Assembly: GCA_044351265.1 (NCBI GenBank)
Contig: JBILGC010000003.1
Location: 22,886 to 86,885 of the forward strand
DNA: 64,000 bases
Direction: 5' to 3'
DNA from: Bacteroidia bacterium
Lineage (GTDB): Bacteria; Bacteroidota; Bacteroidia; UKL13-3
Part shown: positions 23,344-30,245 of the stretch, piece after piece
How the letters are laid out: every line of letters starts with the position of its first letter
Numbering within the stretch: the first letter of the stretch is position 1
Program-made: the position numbers and the translations under genes
The notes under the pieces: model-generated
Database searches by the model: none
The model's input: only the letters and a program-made list of their open reading frames with translations
Told to the model about the DNA's origin: nothing

Positions 23344-26286
23344 CTACTTACCACCGAGCGCATAATATCTGTTCATGCATTCCTGCGCCTCGGCTGATTT
23401 GCCTTGTTTATTAAATACCTCCGCAAGCAGGCGGTATGACATTGCACTTTTTTGATCTAAGGTGAGCGCCAGTATCAGGTTATCTTCAGCTTTTTTATAG
23501 CTACCCGTATTGTAATATCCTAAACCAAGGTTGTAATAAACATCTGCAACACTTCCGCCACCTCGTTTCACAGCCATTTCAAGAAACTTAAGCCCTGCCC
23601 CGAAATCTCCTTTCTGATAATGGGCCATAGCTGTGTAATAGTAAGCATCGGTATAATTGAATTTATAACTATTGGCTTTCTTGAAATACTCAATAGCTTT
23701 ATCCGGATTTTTATTCAGGTTAATTTCTACCAAACCAAGAGTAGACCATGCCATATAATTTTCAGGATAAATATCAATTGCTTTATTTAAATTTCTGATA
23801 GCCTCAGGAGCGTTGCCTTTACTTAGATAGCATAAACCCAGCATTCTAAAAACTTCTTCATCTTTTGGATTATAAGCTGCTGCCTGATTGAAGTAAAAAA
23901 TAGCCGTATCGAAATTTCTGGCCTCAAAATACTGATAACCTTTAGGCATCCAATTGTTCTCTCTTTTAACAACAGCAGCCAACGGAATACCGTCAGCCAT
24001 TACTGTATATACTGTACCTTTAGGTGGGAAGGCACCGGCTTCCAGTTCTTTCGATGAAAAGGTACGTGAGGTGAGTATGGCATAATCCCACGGCAACTTT
24101 TGCTCTTCATATTCACGCATCCACCTAAATTCCATATCCGGATTGTATTTATTGGCGTAGTAAGATGCTGTGAGTGGCTCATTATTTATGCCCACTATCA
24201 TTTTTTTATTTGGCTCTTGTTTAGCTATCCACTCTGCTGCCTCACGGCATGAGTTGGAATAATAATCCATTTCATATTTACCATAAGCACCTTTAGTGCC
24301 CCCACTTACAGCATTAAAATACACACACTCGTTCGGATGATTTTGTAACATCCAGGATGCAGGGAGAGCACATAAAAGCAACACACCTGCCAATGATGCA
24401 TAACTTGTAATTTTGTTTTTAGTGATTACACCTAAGCCATCCCAGCCGCAAGCAGCAAGTATTACTATTGGCGGATAAACAAACAAGTAATGCCTCCACC
24501 CATTATAATAATACATGCTCTGGACTTCGGCATATGCAATTGGGAAAACTGCAACAAATATTACTATGCCTATGGCATACCAATTTTTATAGTTCCTTTT
24601 TAAAACCCATAGTAACGAAACAAGAAGAGCAATGCCCAACCAAACGACTTCAGGAGTATTGATAAAAATAAATTTAGGTAAATAATACCAGGGTACATTT
24701 GCCATATACATGCGCACACCTTCAAACAACTCATGGTTAAAAGTAAAATATGCCCCTTCGGTTGATTTTTTCAGCGCTTCATACCAATTGGCAAAAGGCT
24801 GCTGCTGTGCAAATGGCCATAATGAAATACCAACCAAGTGACCAACGATAACAATGAGCAGTAAAATACGCGCATAAGGCCAAATTAGTTTAATAGCATT
24901 TGACATACCTTCTTTTTTAACAACAAGCAGCCAGGAAATACCTAAAAATAAACCAACATAAGCATACCAGATGATGCCTCCTACGCGTGAGCCAATGGCC
25001 ATACCAATACCGGCACCGCATAAAACCAAGTGCAATAAAGCAGGCTTAGGCAGCTGCTGAAGTATCTTTATTAAATAATAGAGTGCCATTGCACACCCTG
25101 CAGCAAATGGAATATCAGTAGGGTTATTCATGCTGTGTGCAAAAAATACAGGGCTGCAAAAAATGATTATAAATGCAAAAAATGCTCCGCGCCAAGATGT
25201 AATTTCTTTAGCAGCAAGAGCAGCAAACAACATGGCTAACAGTCCATACAACGCATTAAGCAAATGACGCATTTCAAATTCGCCCAACACACCAAAATAG
25301 GTATTAAAAAACGCACTGATTACATTAAAATGTTCTCCGTAATATCTGAACTCCTGTATAGGTGATGTAGCAGATAATGCCGTTGAATCGCTTCCAAATG
25401 AGGTAAAATAATTAAGCATCTGGTAGCCATACTGGTTATGGCGTTTGGCATCCCAGGTTATACCAAAGTCCTGACTAAAATAAGGCATGGCAATACATGC
25501 GAACAGAAAAAATGCAGCAAAAAGCAAACGATATAAGGGTTGGTATCCTGCCGTATCTTCTGCACCAAATTGCATCAGCGGATCTTTGATAAACCAGCTA
25601 ATTCGTGGACCAAGAATATTGCTTACTATCTTTTTAAAACTAACCTTACGCAACTGATGCTCTTTTGCCGAAAGTGTGATTGCAACAACAGGTGTGCTTA
25701 AATAGGCAAGGCGGCTGCAAACAGAAATGCTTTTATGGTGATTGCTATTAAACCCTTTTACTGCAGCATCTCTACCAAAAAATACAAATGGATGTGTGTA
25801 ATCTTTTAAACCTGCAGGTAAGAGCATGCCTGCAAGCAGATTGTATAAACCAATACCTGTTTTTTGTAAAATGTTTATTGGCAACTTGCCCGACTGGGCA
25901 TTAAACTCACCAACATAAACTGCATCCAATTCTGTAAATGATTTTTTGTTCAATCCAAAACAACTTACCACAGCCTGTGGCATAAATGAAGTTGTATCAT
26001 TAACCACATAAACAACCTTTCTGCAATGCTCTGCCCAATCTTTGAAACTAGCTATAACATGACATCTGCCTTTTTCTTTGAGTGCTAAAACATCGGGGAG
26101 GTTTGCAACCACACCACTTTTATCAAACACAATTAATGATGACTCTGTACGCACTTTTAATAAAGCCTGAGCCACCATATTTGCATCATCGGGCTTTTTA
26201 GCGGCATCAAATAAAAAGGTAAGCTCTTGGTCGCTCACCGTTTTTATTTGTTCTGCTGAAGGTTTGGTTGTATTCTTTTTGCTCAT
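23344..26286 (-). CDS. GT-C-fold membrane glycosyltransferase-like protein (DUF2723/GT117- or PMT-like), with C-terminal TPR repeats and a distinct N-terminal cytoplasmic domain of about 230 aa
   Basis: 980 aa. Residues about 240-700 have at least 11 hydrophobic helices. The C-terminal 230 aa have at least 5 TPR-like repeats (AYNPKDEEVFRMLGLCYLSKGNAPEAIRNL..., YMAWSTLGLVEINLNKNPDKAIEYFKKA..., YYNLGLGYYNTGSYKKAEDNLILALTLDQ...). A 4-nt overlap with the upstream FAD enzyme gene suggests an operon. Confidence 0.55.
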   Translation of the reverse strand: MSKKNTTKPSAEQIKTVSDQELTFLFDAAKKPDDANMVAQALLKVRTESSLIVFDKSGVVANLPDVLALKEKGRCHVIASFKDWAEHCRKVVYVVNDTTSFMPQAVVSCFGLNKKSFTELDAVYVGEFNAQSGKLPINILQKTGIGLYNLLAGMLLPAGLKDYTHPFVFFGRDAAVKGFNSNHHKSISVCSRLAYLSTPVVAITLSAKEHQLRKVSFKKIVSNILGPRISWFIKDPLMQFGAEDTAGYQPLYRLLFAAFFLFACIAMPYFSQDFGITWDAKRHNQYGYQMLNYFTSFGSDSTALSATSPIQEFRYYGEHFNVISAFFNTYFGVLGEFEMRHLLNALYGLLAMLFAALAAKEITSWRGAFFAFIIIFCSPVFFAHSMNNPTDIPFAAGCAMALYYLIKILQQLPKPALLHLVLCGAGIGMAIGSRVGGIIWYAYVGLFLGISWLLVVKKEGMSNAIKLIWPYARILLLIVIVGHLVGISLWPFAQQQPFANWYEALKKSTEGAYFTFNHELFEGVRMYMANVPWYYLPKFIFINTPEVVWLGIALLVSLLWVLKRNYKNWYAIGIVIFVAVFPIAYAEVQSMYYYNGWRHYLFVYPPIVILAACGWDGLGVITKNKITSYASLAGVLLLCALPASWMLQNHPNECVYFNAVSGGTKGAYGKYEMDYYSNSCREAAEWIAKQEPNKKMIVGINNEPLTASYYANKYNPDMEFRWMREYEEQKLPWDYAILTSRTFSSKELEAGAFPPKGTVYTVMADGIPLAAVVKRENNWMPKGYQYFEARNFDTAIFYFNQAAAYNPKDEEVFRMLGLCYLSKGNAPEAIRNLNKAIDIYPENYMAWSTLGLVEINLNKNPDKAIEYFKKANSYKFNYTDAYYYTAMAHYQKGDFGAGLKFLEMAVKRGGGSVADVYYNLGLGYYNTGSYKKAEDNLILALTLDQKSAMSYRLLAEVFNKQGKSAEAQECMNRYYALGGK

Positions 26287-27713
26287 TTTCTTACCAATCC
26301 GGTTTTAGTAATTACAGAACTCTCCTGATAACTTTCGTAGTCGGTATTTATATCCCAAAGGTTATGCCCTGTCTGTTGCAAAATATTTTCGGCAGCCAGC
26401 ATACCCATTAGTATGGAATGATCCTGGTTGTTGTATTTAAATGCGCCATATCGGCCAATAACATGCAGATGCTGAATGCTGCTTAAATATTGCTCAACCG
26501 GGTTCAGAATTTCCTTGTAACCTTTTGAGTAAACAGGATAGCAACGCGGAATGCGATAGGTATGTGCATGTAAAATTTTAGCATCACCAATTAATCCGGT
26601 CTTACGTATTTCCTCCTCGCCCAATTTATTCAGTTGTTCATCTGTCCATTTCCAGAAATCATCTTCATCATAGCACCAATATTCCAAAGCAAGTATGCTA
26701 GTGGTTTTATCCTTATATAATTGTGGAACCCAGTTTCTGAAATTGGTGATGCGCCCTGTGCGCAAATCTGTTGAATGCACATACAGCCAATTATCTTCAA
26801 ACAAATTTGTTGCATCAACTTCAACAAATACTATAATGGTGTTTCTGAAACGCAGCTGCGCATTCAGATTTTTAATTTGCTCCGGGGCCTCATCAATTCT
26901 ACTTACCAAAAGTGTTATCGGCATGGAAGAAATAATATGATCATAATATTTCACCTCGCCATTTTCCAGTTCTAATCCTTTGGCTACTCCGCCCTCAACA
27001 ATTACCCGTTTTACAGGCGTTTTTAAAAACACATTCCCGCCTTTTTCTTTAATCAGATTCTCCATTCGGTTATACACCATGCCTGTTCCCTCAAGCGGAT
27101 AAGCAAATTCGTCTACCAGGGTTTTATGTTTTTTATTTTTATCGCCAAATAATGCAGCCTTAGCAGCCTCCCACAGGGATAGTTTTTTAATACGCTGTGC
27201 GGCAAAATCAGCATCTAGTTCGTTGCATTGAATACCCCAAAGTTTTTCGCTGTAGGTTTTAAAAAATATTTCATAAAGCCTTTTCCCGAAGCGGCTGCGA
27301 ACCCACCCCTCAAAAGTGCTTTTATCTCTGGTTGGAAATATTCTTTCCATTCCAAAACTGAGCATGCAGCGGGCTGCTTCAAATAAGCCCAGTTTGCTTA
27401 ATGCATCAAGTGCTTTAATGGGGTAGTAATACAGGTTATTTTTATAGAGAATGCGTGTAAGGCGATTCACCATTGCATAATCTTCTTTCACTACTTCAAG
27501 CCATAGCGAATTAACACGTGTATCGCTGCTAAAAAAACGATGTGGACCAATATCCACGGTTTGGCCCCATAGCTCAACCGACTTTGCAAGCCCACCAACC
27601 GAAGGACCTGCCTCATATAAATCAACCGATGAAATTTCTTTGCTTAACTGATAGGCAGCAGTAATACCAGCAGGGCCGGCACCAATAACAGCTACTTTTA
27701 TGGATTTACTCAC
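26283..27713 (-). CDS. FAD/NAD(P)-binding amine-oxidase-fold oxidoreductase (UDP-galactopyranose-mutase / protoporphyrinogen-oxidase superfamily)
   Basis: N-terminal dinucleotide fold VAVIGAGPAGITAAYQLSK...VDLYEAGPSVGGLAKS. C-terminal GRYGAFKYNNQDHSILMGMLAAENIL resembles the C-terminal FAD-binding segment of mutase/amine-oxidase-type flavoenzymes. 476 aa. Confidence 0.6.
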   Translation of the reverse strand: MSKSIKVAVIGAGPAGITAAYQLSKEISSVDLYEAGPSVGGLAKSVELWGQTVDIGPHRFFSSDTRVNSLWLEVVKEDYAMVNRLTRILYKNNLYYYPIKALDALSKLGLFEAARCMLSFGMERIFPTRDKSTFEGWVRSRFGKRLYEIFFKTYSEKLWGIQCNELDADFAAQRIKKLSLWEAAKAALFGDKNKKHKTLVDEFAYPLEGTGMVYNRMENLIKEKGGNVFLKTPVKRVIVEGGVAKGLELENGEVKYYDHIISSMPITLLVSRIDEAPEQIKNLNAQLRFRNTIIVFVEVDATNLFEDNWLYVHSTDLRTGRITNFRNWVPQLYKDKTTSILALEYWCYDEDDFWKWTDEQLNKLGEEEIRKTGLIGDAKILHAHTYRIPRCYPVYSKGYKEILNPVEQYLSSIQHLHVIGRYGAFKYNNQDHSILMGMLAAENILQQTGHNLWDINTDYESYQESSVITKTGLVRK

Positions 27714-27753: not shown

Positions 27754-28302
27754 TTACGATACTTTTTCAAATACAAATACGTGATTAAGCCCAAACTGGA
27801 AAATTTTATGCCTCAGCAGTTTAAATTGCGGTGGAGCAAAGATGTTGGGAGTATCAGCTGTTTTGAAGCCATAGTGCTCCTCTAGCGACATGCCATCTAT
27901 GATGCGAAATAGGCGTAAAACCACCAAAATATAATCAACCAAGGGCGAGGGAACGGTGATGATAACCCTGCCTTTAGGCTTCAGATGTTGATGGCAAGCT
28001 TCAGCCAGTTTATGTTGTGCCTGAGGTGGTATGTGCTCCAGCACAGCCAACATGGTAATACAATCAAACTGTTCACCTGGTGCAAAGGCATCCGGAAATA
28101 TTCCTTTAACCAAACGGTAAGTGCCTGCGTCTGCATTTTCAGCAAGCGGATCCACACCCGCACCTGTAATTTTTTGATGCTGCAACTGCTTGAAAAGTAC
28201 CCCATCATAACTTCCAATATCCAAAACATGAGCGCCTGTATTAATGAATACCGCAGCCTGTGTAATTCTTTGCTTTTGCAGCAAGTAATCAAACGCCTTC
28301 AT
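27754..28302 (-). CDS. Class I SAM-dependent methyltransferase
   Basis: Motif I VLDIGSYDGVL and a post-I acidic region. 182 aa. A 4-nt overlap with the upstream GT2 gene. Confidence 0.7.
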   Translation of the reverse strand: MKAFDYLLQKQRITQAAVFINTGAHVLDIGSYDGVLFKQLQHQKITGAGVDPLAENADAGTYRLVKGIFPDAFAPGEQFDCITMLAVLEHIPPQAQHKLAEACHQHLKPKGRVIITVPSPLVDYILVVLRLFRIIDGMSLEEHYGFKTADTPNIFAPPQFKLLRHKIFQFGLNHVFVFEKVS

Positions 28303-29462
28303 CGCTTGCGGTTAAGGGTAAGAACACTTAAAAAGAAACTTGAAAAAATGGTTTGAATACCAAGGATGATAAAAACAACTGAAGGTATAACCACACGCAG
28401 AATAGACGAGTATTCAAGCGTTCCAAAATCAACCTGATCCCAAAGGTATAATGAGTATGCCGACCCTGCTATTCCCGCAAGCGTAACAAATACACCTGCA
28501 ACAATTCCTCGCTCAAGCGTAAGCCATTTTTCAATAAGTGAAATAGTTTTCTTATCAGGCATGAGTCCCGCTTGAATGGCATACCTGCGTGTAAAAATAC
28601 CAAACACCATTAACTGAAAACCAATGATGGCAGCCGCTCCCGAATAAAGCATTGTATTGGTATCGAAATAAATATTAAACAAATGAACAGGGCCATTAAT
28701 AATAAGCGAACCTGATATAATACCTGATAAAATGAGCAAGATACCCGGGTACAGAAATAACCAGCGCGGACTATAAATGAGTAAAAATCGGAGATGCCTC
28801 CAGCCGTCCTGCCATGTGCGCAAGTGCGGTGGTCGGCTGCGTCCCGCTACACTCAATGTAGTTGGCACTTCGCAGATGCGCAGCTTAAATAAACTAGCTT
28901 TTACAATCATTTCACTGGCAAACTCCATACCTGTGGTACGCAGATTTAAGAGTGATACAATATCTTGCCTAAAGCCACGGAGGCCGCAATGAAAATCGTT
29001 TACGGAGGAGTTAAAGAAAAGCTTTCCGATAAAGGAAAGAACCGGATTACCAAGATATTTATGTAAAAAAGGCATGGCGCCCTTGCTTATGCCACCCTTA
29101 AATCTGTTGCCAACTACCAAATCATATCCCTCTCGCAATTTTTCAATAAAAGGATTCAGGGAAGAAAAATCATAGCTGTCATCTGAATCACCCATGATTA
29201 CATACTTGCCATATGCAGCTTCGATGCCGTACATCAATGCACTCCCATAGCCCTTCTCGGGTGCATGCACCACACGGGCACCCAACTTTTCGGCAATAGC
29301 AATGGAGCCATCAGTGCTTCCGTTATCAGAAACTATTACTTCTCCGCTGATATTATTCTGCCTTATGTAACGCAATGCTTTTTCAATGCATTCGCCAATG
29401 GTTTCGGCCTCATTTAGGCAAGGCATTACAATAGATAATTCAAGATTATGTTCCGGGGTCAT
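28299..29462 (-). CDS. Family 2 glycosyltransferase, polyprenyl-phosphate sugar synthase type (GtrB/DPM1/ArnC-like), with C-terminal membrane helices
   Basis: LSIVMPCLNEAETIGECI...VIVSDNGSTDGS...YVIMGDSDDSYDF (a GT-A DxD region), then about 4 C-terminal TM helices. 387 aa. Confidence 0.8.
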   Translation of the reverse strand: MTPEHNLELSIVMPCLNEAETIGECIEKALRYIRQNNISGEVIVSDNGSTDGSIAIAEKLGARVVHAPEKGYGSALMYGIEAAYGKYVIMGDSDDSYDFSSLNPFIEKLREGYDLVVGNRFKGGISKGAMPFLHKYLGNPVLSFIGKLFFNSSVNDFHCGLRGFRQDIVSLLNLRTTGMEFASEMIVKASLFKLRICEVPTTLSVAGRSRPPHLRTWQDGWRHLRFLLIYSPRWLFLYPGILLILSGIISGSLIINGPVHLFNIYFDTNTMLYSGAAAIIGFQLMVFGIFTRRYAIQAGLMPDKKTISLIEKWLTLERGIVAGVFVTLAGIAGSAYSLYLWDQVDFGTLEYSSILRVVIPSVVFIILGIQTIFSSFFLSVLTLNRKR

Positions 29463-29750: not shown

Positions 29751-30245
29751 CTACTTCCCTGCAAAAGGAATATCTATGGCATCGCCCCACAATTCCTCTA
29801 CTGCATAAAACTCACGCTTCTCCTCCTGAAAAACATGCGCCACCACATCGATATAATCCAACAACACCCACTCAAGGTTTTCGTATCCTTCACGGTGCCA
29901 AGGCCATTCTTTAAATACCTTAAAAACTTCTTCTTCTACTGAATCTCCAATGGCTTCTACTTGTTTATCTGATTTTGCATGACAAATTACAAAGAAGTCG
30001 GCTGATGCTTTATCAATATTGCGCATGTCTAAAATACGAATATCCTCTGCCTTTAACTCAAACATACCCTGGGCTACAGCTTTGGCTAAAGCCATGCTGC
30101 TGTAAGTGGTAATATCTGCAACTTTCTTTGTTTTGGGTCTTTCAGCTTTAGGTTTGGTGCTTACTTTTTTTGCTGCTGTTTTTTTAGGAGCCGCTTTCTT
30201 CTTTGCGGGTTCTTTCTTCGCCATTTTTTCTATCTTTGGCTGCAA
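29751..30245 (-). CDS. rsfS: Ribosome silencing factor RsfS (Iojap family) with a K/A-rich N-terminal extension
   Basis: The core SSMALAKAVAQGMFELKAEDIRILDMRNI...FFVICHAKSDKQVEAIGDSVEE...EGYENLEWVLLDYIDVVAHVFQEEKREFYAVEELWGDA matches RsfS/Iojap. The first about 45 codons encode MAKKEPAKKKAAPKKTAAKKVSTKPKAERPKTKKV. The true start is uncertain. Confidence 0.8.
   Translation of the reverse strand: MQPKIEKMAKKEPAKKKAAPKKTAAKKVSTKPKAERPKTKKVADITTYSSMALAKAVAQGMFELKAEDIRILDMRNIDKASADFFVICHAKSDKQVEAIGDSVEEEVFKVFKEWPWHREGYENLEWVLLDYIDVVAHVFQEEKREFYAVEELWGDAIDIPFAGK

Follow-up and report, generated by a model that had tools for sequence, protein, structure and literature searches.

Gene organization of the locus

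The window analyzed here, a 64,000-nucleotide stretch of a contig from a Bacteroidia bacterium, encodes a membrane glycosyltransferase of 980 aa whose translation begins MSKKNTTKPSAEQIK (Table 1). Taken whole, the protein resembles the PMT/TMTC-like GT-C enzymes, with a polytopic body, an acidic loop motif, and a C-terminal TPR array. Two Pfam families of the PMT/PMT_2 type match aa 319–481 over their cut-offs (PF02366, 36.2 bits; PF13231, 36.6 bits), and TPR families match aa 776–977 (E 4.9e-18). We found 85 homologues of the GT-C body, and its search against PDB gave TPR matches only. GITWD, directly after TM1, corresponds to the acidic motif of the first external loop.

The minus strand reads ATGA (tcat on the plus strand) where the GT-C gene meets the flavoenzyme gene, so the ATG of the former overlaps the TGA of the latter, as the first-pass annotation had it; the same junction occurs at three related loci (L002, L003, and L009). 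A stand-alone GT2 lies two genes upstream of the GT-C gene. Its GDSDD, NR, and NDFHCGLRGF motifs are intact, and its best PDB match is DPMS (5mlz, 3e-14).

Table 1. Features of the glycosyltransferase locus (positions within the window)
Feature	Residues	Position	Strand	Basis or remark
ORF of membrane glycosyltransferase	980 aa	23344..26286	minus	read from sequence
N-terminal domain, degenerate GT-A (GT2, polyprenyl-phosphate glycosyltransferase-like)	1–245	25552..26286	minus	
Predicted GT-A core, b1-a1-b2...b5	20–135	25882..26229	minus	AF2; colinear with P0030, ArnC, GtrB
N-D-T at DXD metal/diphosphate motif position (degenerate)	96–98	25993..26001	minus	alignments
Putative counterpart of ArnC/GtrB interface/juxtamembrane helix IH1	136–156	25819..25881	minus	AF2 helix 139–155; alignment
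P..LKDYTHPFVFF, most conserved block	157–172	25771..25818	minus	alignments and conservation
Long predicted helix with R228 and W231 (NWF), IH2 position	217–241	25564..25638	minus	AF2 helix 217–241
GT-C membrane glycosyltransferase body (PMT/PMT_2-like)	246–760	24007..25551	minus	Pfam
TM1 of GT-C body	249–272	25471..25542	minus	hydropathy
C-terminal TPR array and stop codon	761–980	23344..24006	minus	Pfam TPR families; PDB TPR matches
ATGA start/stop overlap with upstream flavoenzyme gene		26283..26286	minus	read directly from sequence
FAD enzyme, UDP-galactopyranose-mutase-like		26283..27713	minus	adjoins GT-C gene in 12/21 related loci
Class I methyltransferase of operon		27754..28302	minus	4-nt overlap with GT2 gene
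Stand-alone motif-intact GT2 of operon (DPMS/AglJ/ArnC-like, C-terminal TM helices)		28299..29462	minus	PF00535 2.2e-30

Coding status of the N-terminal extension

About 245 non-membrane residues precede TM1, the earliest hydrophobic segment of the protein by hydropathy. Within them no 19-residue window has a Kyte-Doolittle mean of 1.5 or more, and the maximum in a profile taken at 10-residue steps is 1.35. An in-frame extension of 204–256 aa stands before TM1 in all 21 of the GT-C relatives compared (L001–L021, Bacteroidota; 22 loci were returned), with no stop codon or frameshift in the extension at any of the 21. The proposal made from the sequence, a genuine soluble segment fused in frame, is supported. 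The loop after TM1, with its GT-C WD motif, must face the periplasm, and aa 1–245 would therefore be cytoplasmic; the GT-C topology in this way supports the location first suggested for the segment.

Against L001, L002, and L003, respectively, dN/dS comes to 0.30, 0.26, and 0.14 for the N-terminal domain and to 0.10, 0.09, and 0.04 for the GT-C body, a roughly threefold difference. With nonsynonymous change well below synonymous change and the extension present in 21/21 loci, the segment is not a chance open frame. As judged by substitution pattern, it is translated and under purifying selection, which agrees with the earlier view that it is no annotation artefact. Most relatives of the GT-C body reach TM1 within ~30–75 residues (P0009, P0012, P0016, P0021, P0038, and P0056), bearing out the statement that PMT/TMTC-like proteins usually open with TM1, and by this comparison the extension is an addition to the GT-C body.

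Fold and homology of the N-terminal domain

Neither Pfam nor NCBIfam has a match for aa 1–250. The GT2 family PF00535 is not matched even at E ≤ 1 by the window domain, nor by any of seven degenerate relatives that were re-scanned (P0006, P0007, L019, L011, L014, L004, and L009). Three members of a 22-member scan do match at this level, P0008 and P0030 being identified among them, and P0008 exceeds the Pfam threshold (33.2 bits vs a cut-off of 23.3).

Profile comparisons of the N-terminal domains, run with the linker removed, link the clade of the window protein (the window clade) to a second clade, B (L011, L013, L014, and L021; E 1.6e-13), clade B to P0008 (E 1.5e-22), and the window clade to P0008 (E 3.9e-7). 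In the same way, 19 degenerate domains match the GT2 domain of P0030 (E 5.8e-8) and the orthologues of the stand-alone operon GT2 (E 1.5e-5 over 152 colinear columns), compared with E 0.2–0.5 for Rossmann-type controls (methyltransferase and FAD enzyme). By itself, the window clade gives no better than E 0.015–0.026 against bona fide GT2 profiles, and hhalign against the single GtrB-type sequence of L025 gives no significant match (E 0.59); the homology claim therefore leans on the intermediate members of the family. A search of PDB sequences with the clade profile (hmmsearch) returned nothing significant, the top GT2 match being heparosan synthase at E 0.84. In a word-indexed protein search, the domain alone retrieved nothing and a 22-sequence profile retrieved P0089 only, from an index that misses orthologues present in the genome scan. 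Exhaustive phmmer against 1.84 billion representatives recovered one full-length orthologue, P0001, and one fragment, P0003, besides P0002, a repeat protein that is a spurious match.

Structure prediction followed by Foldseek had been proposed for this region, and it points to a GT-A fold closest to ArnC, GtrB, and DPMS. The AF2 model, built on a six-sequence alignment that included the GT2-positive P0008, has a pLDDT of 71.3 and a pTM of 0.70; from the single sequence, AlphaFold gives a pLDDT of 34.5. All of the top eight PDB matches to the model are ArnC, GtrB, or DPMS (E 1e-7 to 8e-6), and the best 50 of the 57 matches at E ≤ 1e-3 are all GT-A enzymes, with modest TM-scores (0.43–0.50) and high rmsd. 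On this model, aa 1–245 have a predicted GT-A fold.

Conservation and motif erosion

We mapped the GT2 motifs with residue roles taken from PMC4728340 and bioRxiv 10.1101/2024.07.30.605912. The reference positions are the DXD that handles metal and donor diphosphate (GtrB D94/D96, ArnC D100/D102) and the acceptor-phosphate Arg (GtrB R122, ArnC R128), and GtrB R122 mutants are inactive (PMC4728340). None of the aligned degenerate members of the family has the second DXD Asp; 11 of 13 window-clade sequences retain the first, where the window protein has Asn (N96). FDAAK stands at the PxYNE position after b1 and FDKSG at the DDGS position after b2, two sets of columns that show no conservation in the window clade. 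The acceptor-phosphate Arg position is E126/F127 in the window clade (Arg to Phe), while clade B keeps the Arg. Both the R122- and the R164-equivalent arginines are lost in the window protein, and Val stands in place of the GFR-block Arg. The domain thus falls short of the GT2 family in its PF00535 score (below gathering), DXD, PxYNE/DDGS, and acceptor-phosphate Arg. The first-pass annotation could place no motif in the segment; it proves to be colinear with the GT2 motifs, in degenerate form. We reject an HAD-like phosphatase, which FDKSG might suggest, as no search supports it.

The predicted core (strands at 22–27, 50–54, 75–78, 91–94, and 123–128; helix at 32–44) contains the poorly conserved nucleotide-sugar half and has the lowest conservation within the domain. 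Conservation peaks at aa 119–172. K114, K115, and S132-G133 do not vary, and conservation is also good at K134 and K142. The acceptor (polyprenyl-phosphate) side is the most conserved: the S132-G133-K134 loop, the putative IH1 helix, which aligns to ArnC 134–153 and conserves K142, Y148, and N149, and D162, the counterpart of ArnC D158 and of the Asp in the D-x-x-x-G-F-R block of GT2 enzymes. This pattern is compatible with the idea of a lipid-donor-presenting or regulatory domain. The predicted helix at aa 217–241 runs into TM1, and R.NWFV is conserved across the family, P0030 included. Both predicted helices (139–155 and 217–241) lie at the aligned IH positions; their hydrophobic moments are unremarkable and their amphipathicity is not convincing.

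Given the DXD acid in 11/13 clade members and the conserved D162, non-canonical activity or ligand binding may persist. With DXD changed to N-D-T, PxYNE and DDGS lost, Arg replaced by Phe, and the GFR Arg replaced by Val, the domain is most likely no longer a glycosyltransferase.

Unfused, intact, and degenerate relatives

In L025, a relative lacking the N-terminal domain, a gene for a GtrB-type GT2 precedes the GT-C gene at a distance of 28 nt, an order that, read from the gene layout, is the unfused arrangement. The GT2 is usually a separate gene, which favors the earlier suggestion of a fused, formerly separate gene; the diverged region itself was not found as a separate ORF in orthologues. 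P0030 and P0008, which are intact GT2–GT-C fusions of the same protein family, share with the window protein the GT-C body (42%–48% identity), the linker R.NW.YFV, and the domain order. P0030 (annotated “glycosyltransferase, partial,” from a Bacteroidota MAG) matches PF00535 at 8e-25, ArnC at 2.8e-18, and GtrB at 6e-11, and it retains the PCYNE, VDDGSHD, DAD, SR, and SDTQCGFK motifs that the window protein has lost; the GT2 domain of P0030 is probably active.

Proposed origin and role

We consider it likely that aa 1–245 are the relic of an ArnC/GtrB-type GT2 fused to a PMT/TMTC-like GT-C enzyme, most likely non-catalytic and kept as a membrane-proximal scaffold or carrier-lipid module. The GT2 would have been joined to the N-terminus of the GT-C protein, a fusion in which the putative interface helices run straight into TM1, and its nucleotide-sugar and metal site would then have decayed in this lineage. 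The carrier-lipid sugar would probably be made by the intact DPMS-like GT2 of the operon. No stand-alone GT2 occurs within 6 kb at seven window-clade loci, and the step in which a separate GT2 supplies the donor is therefore not general. As a scaffold or carrier-lipid-binding module, the relic could link the periplasmic GT-C reaction to the supply of polyprenyl-phosphate sugar in the cytoplasm or to recapture of the free polyprenyl phosphate, and it might do so by docking onto the active operon GT2. A structural or carrier-lipid-handling role is probable.

The domain shares its predicted fold with its best structural matches, GtrB (PDB 5EKP), ArnC (9BHC/9ASC), and Dol-P-Man synthase (5MLZ), and its elements follow one another as theirs do: b1 and b2 come first, then b4 (bearing the DXD position) and the b5 loop, a putative interface helix 1, the D-motif, a putative interface helix 2, and a TM helix. 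ArnC K138, N145, and D158 all have conserved equivalents in it. Unlike these enzymes, it has no Pfam GT2 match, has lost the second DXD Asp, PxYNE, DDGS, and the R122- and R164-equivalents, and is probably non-catalytic; moreover, its putative interface helices lead into a GT-C body of ten or more TM helices, whereas theirs lead into a two- or four-helix anchor. Residues 246–980 have the architecture of PMT/TMTC-type GT-C O-glycosyltransferases with C-terminal TPR arrays, which usually begin with TM1, whereas here a 245-aa, probably cytoplasmic domain comes first.

A precedent for such joining is Ppm1 (Rv2051c) of Mycobacterium tuberculosis, in which a polyprenol-phosphate mannose synthase domain is fused to a polytopic membrane domain; there, an active GT2 domain forms the C-terminal part, and its membrane partner resembles Lnt, not GT-C. 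Non-catalytic GT-A domains serve as structural lobes in the N-terminal GT domain of GLT25D1 and in the inactive partner of chondroitin/heparan polymerase complexes, but those are eukaryotic luminal enzymes, whereas the window domain is bacterial, attached to GT-C, and, by topology, cytoplasmic. Our literature searches found no experimental study of an intact or degenerate GT2–GT-C fusion, and nothing relevant on such fusions or on inactive GT-A domains attached to GT-C enzymes.

It is poorly understood how lipid-linked sugars, made on one membrane face, reach the GT-C enzymes on the opposite one. A fusion of supplier and consumer that lost catalysis yet kept its lipid-facing half would be a natural experiment on the physical coupling of both steps, and the family would offer a test case for pseudo-glycosyltransferase domains. 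The assignment also gives a putative fold and origin to a 245-aa region left blank by Pfam and NCBIfam in at least 20 freshwater Bacteroidota lineages.

Alternative interpretations

A more specific role, which we regard as possible though rather unlikely, is that of a dedicated carrier-lipid module that keeps the lipid-binding face (SGK loop, interface helix, and D162) without the donor site. It would hand polyprenyl-phosphate sugar to the GT-C body, recapture polyprenyl phosphate, or co-assemble with the operon GT2 into a synthase–transferase complex. If so, the domain would be a built-in coupling device between both membrane faces, with no described counterpart among GT-C enzymes.

It is unlikely that the domain has kept polyprenyl-phosphate glycosyltransferase activity, so that a bifunctional protein makes a lipid-linked sugar cytoplasmically and consumes it periplasmically, using a non-canonical, possibly metal-independent site. 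Purifying selection, the conserved D162, and the first DXD acid of most clade members would fit such an enzyme, and the invariant or well-conserved K114, K115, S132-G133, K134, and K142 could replace metal or Arg in phosphate binding. In P0030, the same GT-C scaffold bears a GT2 domain that is fully intact, and several window-clade loci have no separate GT2 nearby. Against this stand the Asn at the first DXD acid of the window protein, the second Asp gone in all degenerate members, the unconserved PxYNE and DDGS positions, the loss of both arginines (GtrB mutants of one, R122, are inactive; PMC4728340), the want of a Pfam GT2 signal, a dN/dS roughly threefold that of the GT-C body, and the intact GT2 gene in the same operon.

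We think it very improbable that the domain, instead of deriving from a GT2, is a module of nucleotidyltransferase type (like IspD or GlmU) or a regulatory one that senses nucleotide sugars. Nucleotidyltransferases align over ~144 residues, versus ~180 for DPMS and ArnC, the leading Foldseek matches are polyprenyl-phosphate glycosyltransferases, and the chain of sequence profiles ends in PF00535-positive members of the same fusion family. Fold and sequence matches are thus closer to the glycosyltransferases, and conservation is lowest in the nucleotide-binding half.

Finally, we reject an internal start site close to TM1 (M238), with the upstream 237 codons untranslated or a decaying pseudogene remnant. 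Most GT-C relatives do start at TM1, and the N-terminal part evolves faster (25%–30% identity in distant orthologues vs 58%–63% for the remainder). Yet the frames are intact at 21 loci and dN/dS is far below 1; L001, an orthologue with 95% identity, has Leu in place of M238, which is missing in most others; loci with a divergent upstream gene still keep the N-terminal M-[SK]-K-[KQ]; and an ATGA overlap is what translationally coupled genes typically show.

Coding Status and Selection

The GT-C gene begins at an ATG (26286-26284) that shares bases with the stop codon (TGA) of the flavoenzyme gene preceding it; the forward-strand tcat at 26283-26286 reads ATGA on the coding strand. No 19-residue window within aa 1-245 attains a Kyte-Doolittle mean of 1.5, and aa 1-250 have no Pfam or NCBIfam match, so the first-pass annotation was correct in describing a soluble, unassigned N-terminus whose gene overlaps its neighbor by 4 nt.

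Features of the GT-C protein and its neighborhood in the window
Feature	Position	Strand	Remarks
GT-C ORF	23344..26286	-	980 residues
First hydrophobic segment (TM1)	aa 249-272		hydropathy
PMT/PMT_2	aa 319-481		Pfam + NCBIfam
TPR repeats	aa 776-977		Pfam + NCBIfam
Flavoenzyme (FAD)	26283..27713	-	best PDB matches UDP-galactopyranose mutases, 1.7e-19
Methyltransferase	27754..28302		same four-gene operon
Motif-intact GT2 with C-terminal TM helices	28299..29462		best PDB match DPMS (Dol-P-Man synthase), 3e-14
RsfS-like ORF	29751..30245	-	N-terminal extension of ~50 aa

A genome scan in which each species was represented by one genome gave 22 loci, all from uncultured-genome assemblies and nearly all labeled Bacteroidota; the 21 that encode relatives of the GT-C body were analyzed. 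In every one of the 21, TM1 is preceded by 204-256 in-frame codons without a stop. An M-[SK]-K-[KQ]... N-terminus is found again even where the upstream gene lies on the opposite strand, which favors the annotated start. The internal candidate start M238, the Met before TM1, is Leu in a 95%-identical orthologue (L001), and translation is very unlikely to begin there. Three of the loci (L004, L006, and L012) bear the MAG labels "uncultured Bifidobacteriaceae" and "Chitinophaga pinensis" on contigs with the same gene family as the remaining MAGs, most of them labeled Bacteroidota; these taxonomic labels look unreliable.

By the Nei-Gojobori method, dN/dS against three close orthologues (L001, L002, and L003) is 0.30, 0.26, and 0.14 for the N-terminal 245 codons, versus 0.10, 0.09, and 0.04 for the GT-C body. 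The N-terminal segment is under purifying selection, about 3-fold more relaxed than the body. Distant orthologues are 24-28% identical in this segment versus 58-63% in the body. Because most protein-database relatives of the body have TM1 within their first 30-75 residues and, if complete, are about 230 residues shorter, the N-terminal domain is an addition confined to one subclade.

Homology to GT2 Glycosyltransferases

Protein-database searches with the N-terminal domain itself returned almost nothing; orthologues overlooked by word-indexed protein search were found by the genome scan and exhaustive phmmer. One candidate relative, P0002, was rejected as a spurious match to a low-complexity tandem-repeat protein. 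Residues 1-500 as query led to two partial relatives, P0030 and P0008, in which a recognizable GT2 (polyprenyl-phosphate glycosyltransferase) N-terminus precedes the same GT-C body. That of P0030 matches PF00535 at 8e-25, with ArnC (2.8e-18), GtrB (6e-11), and DPMS (4.5e-9) as best PDB matches; P0008 scores 33.2 bits against PF00535 (cut-off 23.3). The multiple alignment with GT2 domains is colinear from the first strand through the linker preceding TM1.

In profile-profile comparisons, from which the shared linker was removed beforehand, the window clade (12 sequences) matches a second set of degenerate N-termini, clade B, at E 1.6e-13 and P0008 at 3.9e-7; clade B matches P0008 at 1.5e-22. 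Together, 19 degenerate domains match the P0030 GT2 domain at 5.8e-8 and the operons' stand-alone GT2 genes at 1.5e-5 (152 colinear columns). Two Rossmann-type control proteins from the same operon gave E 0.2-0.5. The window clade alone reaches just 0.015-0.026 against bona fide GT2 sequences and 0.59 against a single GtrB-type sequence (from L025), and a profile search over PDB sequences found no significant match, so the sequence case for GT2 ancestry is transitive.

The structure prediction and Foldseek search proposed in the first-pass annotation point the same way. AlphaFold gave a pLDDT of only 34.5 from the single sequence; a shallow six-sequence alignment that includes P0008 gave a model in which strands and helices alternate (pLDDT 71.3; pTM 0.70). 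Its top PDB matches, with E-values from 1e-7 to 8e-6, TM-scores of 0.43-0.50, and high rmsd, are ArnC, GtrB, and Dol-P-Man synthase, and the significant matches among those listed are GT-A enzymes.

Loss of Active-Site Motifs

Residues were numbered from HMMER alignments, with roles taken from work on GtrB (PMC4728340) and ArnC (preprint 10.1101/2024.07.30.605912).

State of GT2 active-site positions in the N-terminal domain
GT2 element	Window	Relatives
PxYNE after b1	FDAAK	lost
DDGS after b2	FDKSG	column unconserved in clade
DXD	N96-D97-T98	first acid in 11/13 window-clade sequences; second in no degenerate member
Acceptor-phosphate Arg (GtrB R122, ArnC R128)	E126/F127	clade B: still Arg
Arg of "D...GFR" block (ArnC R164)	V168	lost
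ArnC K138	K142	conserved
ArnC N145	N149	conserved
ArnC D158	D162	conserved

The S132-G133 loop is conserved as well, and most sequences of the window clade also have K134. Measured over nine non-redundant members of the clade, conservation is at its maximum over aa 119-172 (the b5 loop, the helix equivalent to interface helix 1, and the D-motif) and at its minimum in the nucleotide-binding half. In clade B (L011-L017 and L021) DXD is replaced by C-D-G, but the acceptor-phosphate Arg is still there ("VATRK"); decay of the GT2 site followed different routes in different lineages.

From these alignments and the predicted model, we conclude that the domain is probably a relic GT2 polyprenyl-phosphate glycosyltransferase, fused to the GT-C protein and decayed in the window. 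By sequence, P0030 shares the GT-C body and still has its GT2 domain intact. Most likely the window domain no longer transfers sugar, a task that would be left to the operon's separate GT2. Residual non-canonical activity has a low probability; in its favor are the acid that most relatives conserve in place of DXD and the invariant K114/K115. In the relic domain the lipid-acceptor face and the interface helix have been selectively kept, which suggests a membrane-proximal scaffold or a role in polyprenyl-phosphate handling.

GT-C enzymes carry an acidic motif in the periplasm-facing loop after TM1. The motif is GITWD in the window protein, and with its loop in the periplasm the N-terminal domain should be cytoplasmic, on the same side as working GT2 polyprenyl-phosphate glycosyltransferases. 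Since GtrB and ArnC form tetramers via their cytoplasmic domains (PMC4728340; 10.1101/2024.07.30.605912), docking onto the active GT2 is conceivable.

The domain's fold and ancestry are already known, and GT2-GT-C fusions exist in databases; no study of such fusions was found in the literature searched. What is new is that a TMTC-like GT-C protein has kept a GT2 domain that is degenerate, probably non-catalytic, and outside any family model.

Operon Context

The operon comprises the GT2, methyltransferase, flavoenzyme, and GT-C genes, an order found again in L002, L003, and L009. Four-nucleotide ATGA overlaps at the GT2/methyltransferase (28299..28302) and flavoenzyme/GT-C (26283..26286) junctions suggest translational coupling. 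The flavoenzyme most resembles eukaryote-type UDP-galactopyranose mutases (PDB 4dsg at 1.7e-19 over aa 6-446) and adjoins the GT-C gene, co-directionally or divergently, in 12 of the 21 loci, which hints at a pathway handling a furanose sugar. Nine loci have a stand-alone GT2 no more than 6 kb away.

At L025 (5136..9256) GT2 is a separate gene: a methyltransferase is followed by a GtrB-type GT2 (329 aa) and, 28 nt downstream on the same strand, by a GT-C/TPR relative (P0015, 751 aa) without the N-terminal domain. This order is the window architecture in unfused form, and a fusion could have arisen from such an arrangement. The earlier suggestion of a fused, formerly separate gene is favored by the GT2 homology and the L025 pair.

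The contig encoding the relative P0007 (L026, 4429..7568) is split into numerous short ORFs, among them fragments of GT2 and GT2_TM_C upstream of the fused gene; this looks like a frameshift-rich assembly and not real pseudogenes. The extension of the RsfS-like ORF is rich in Lys/Ala/Pro (MAKKEPAKKKAAPKKTAAKK...).
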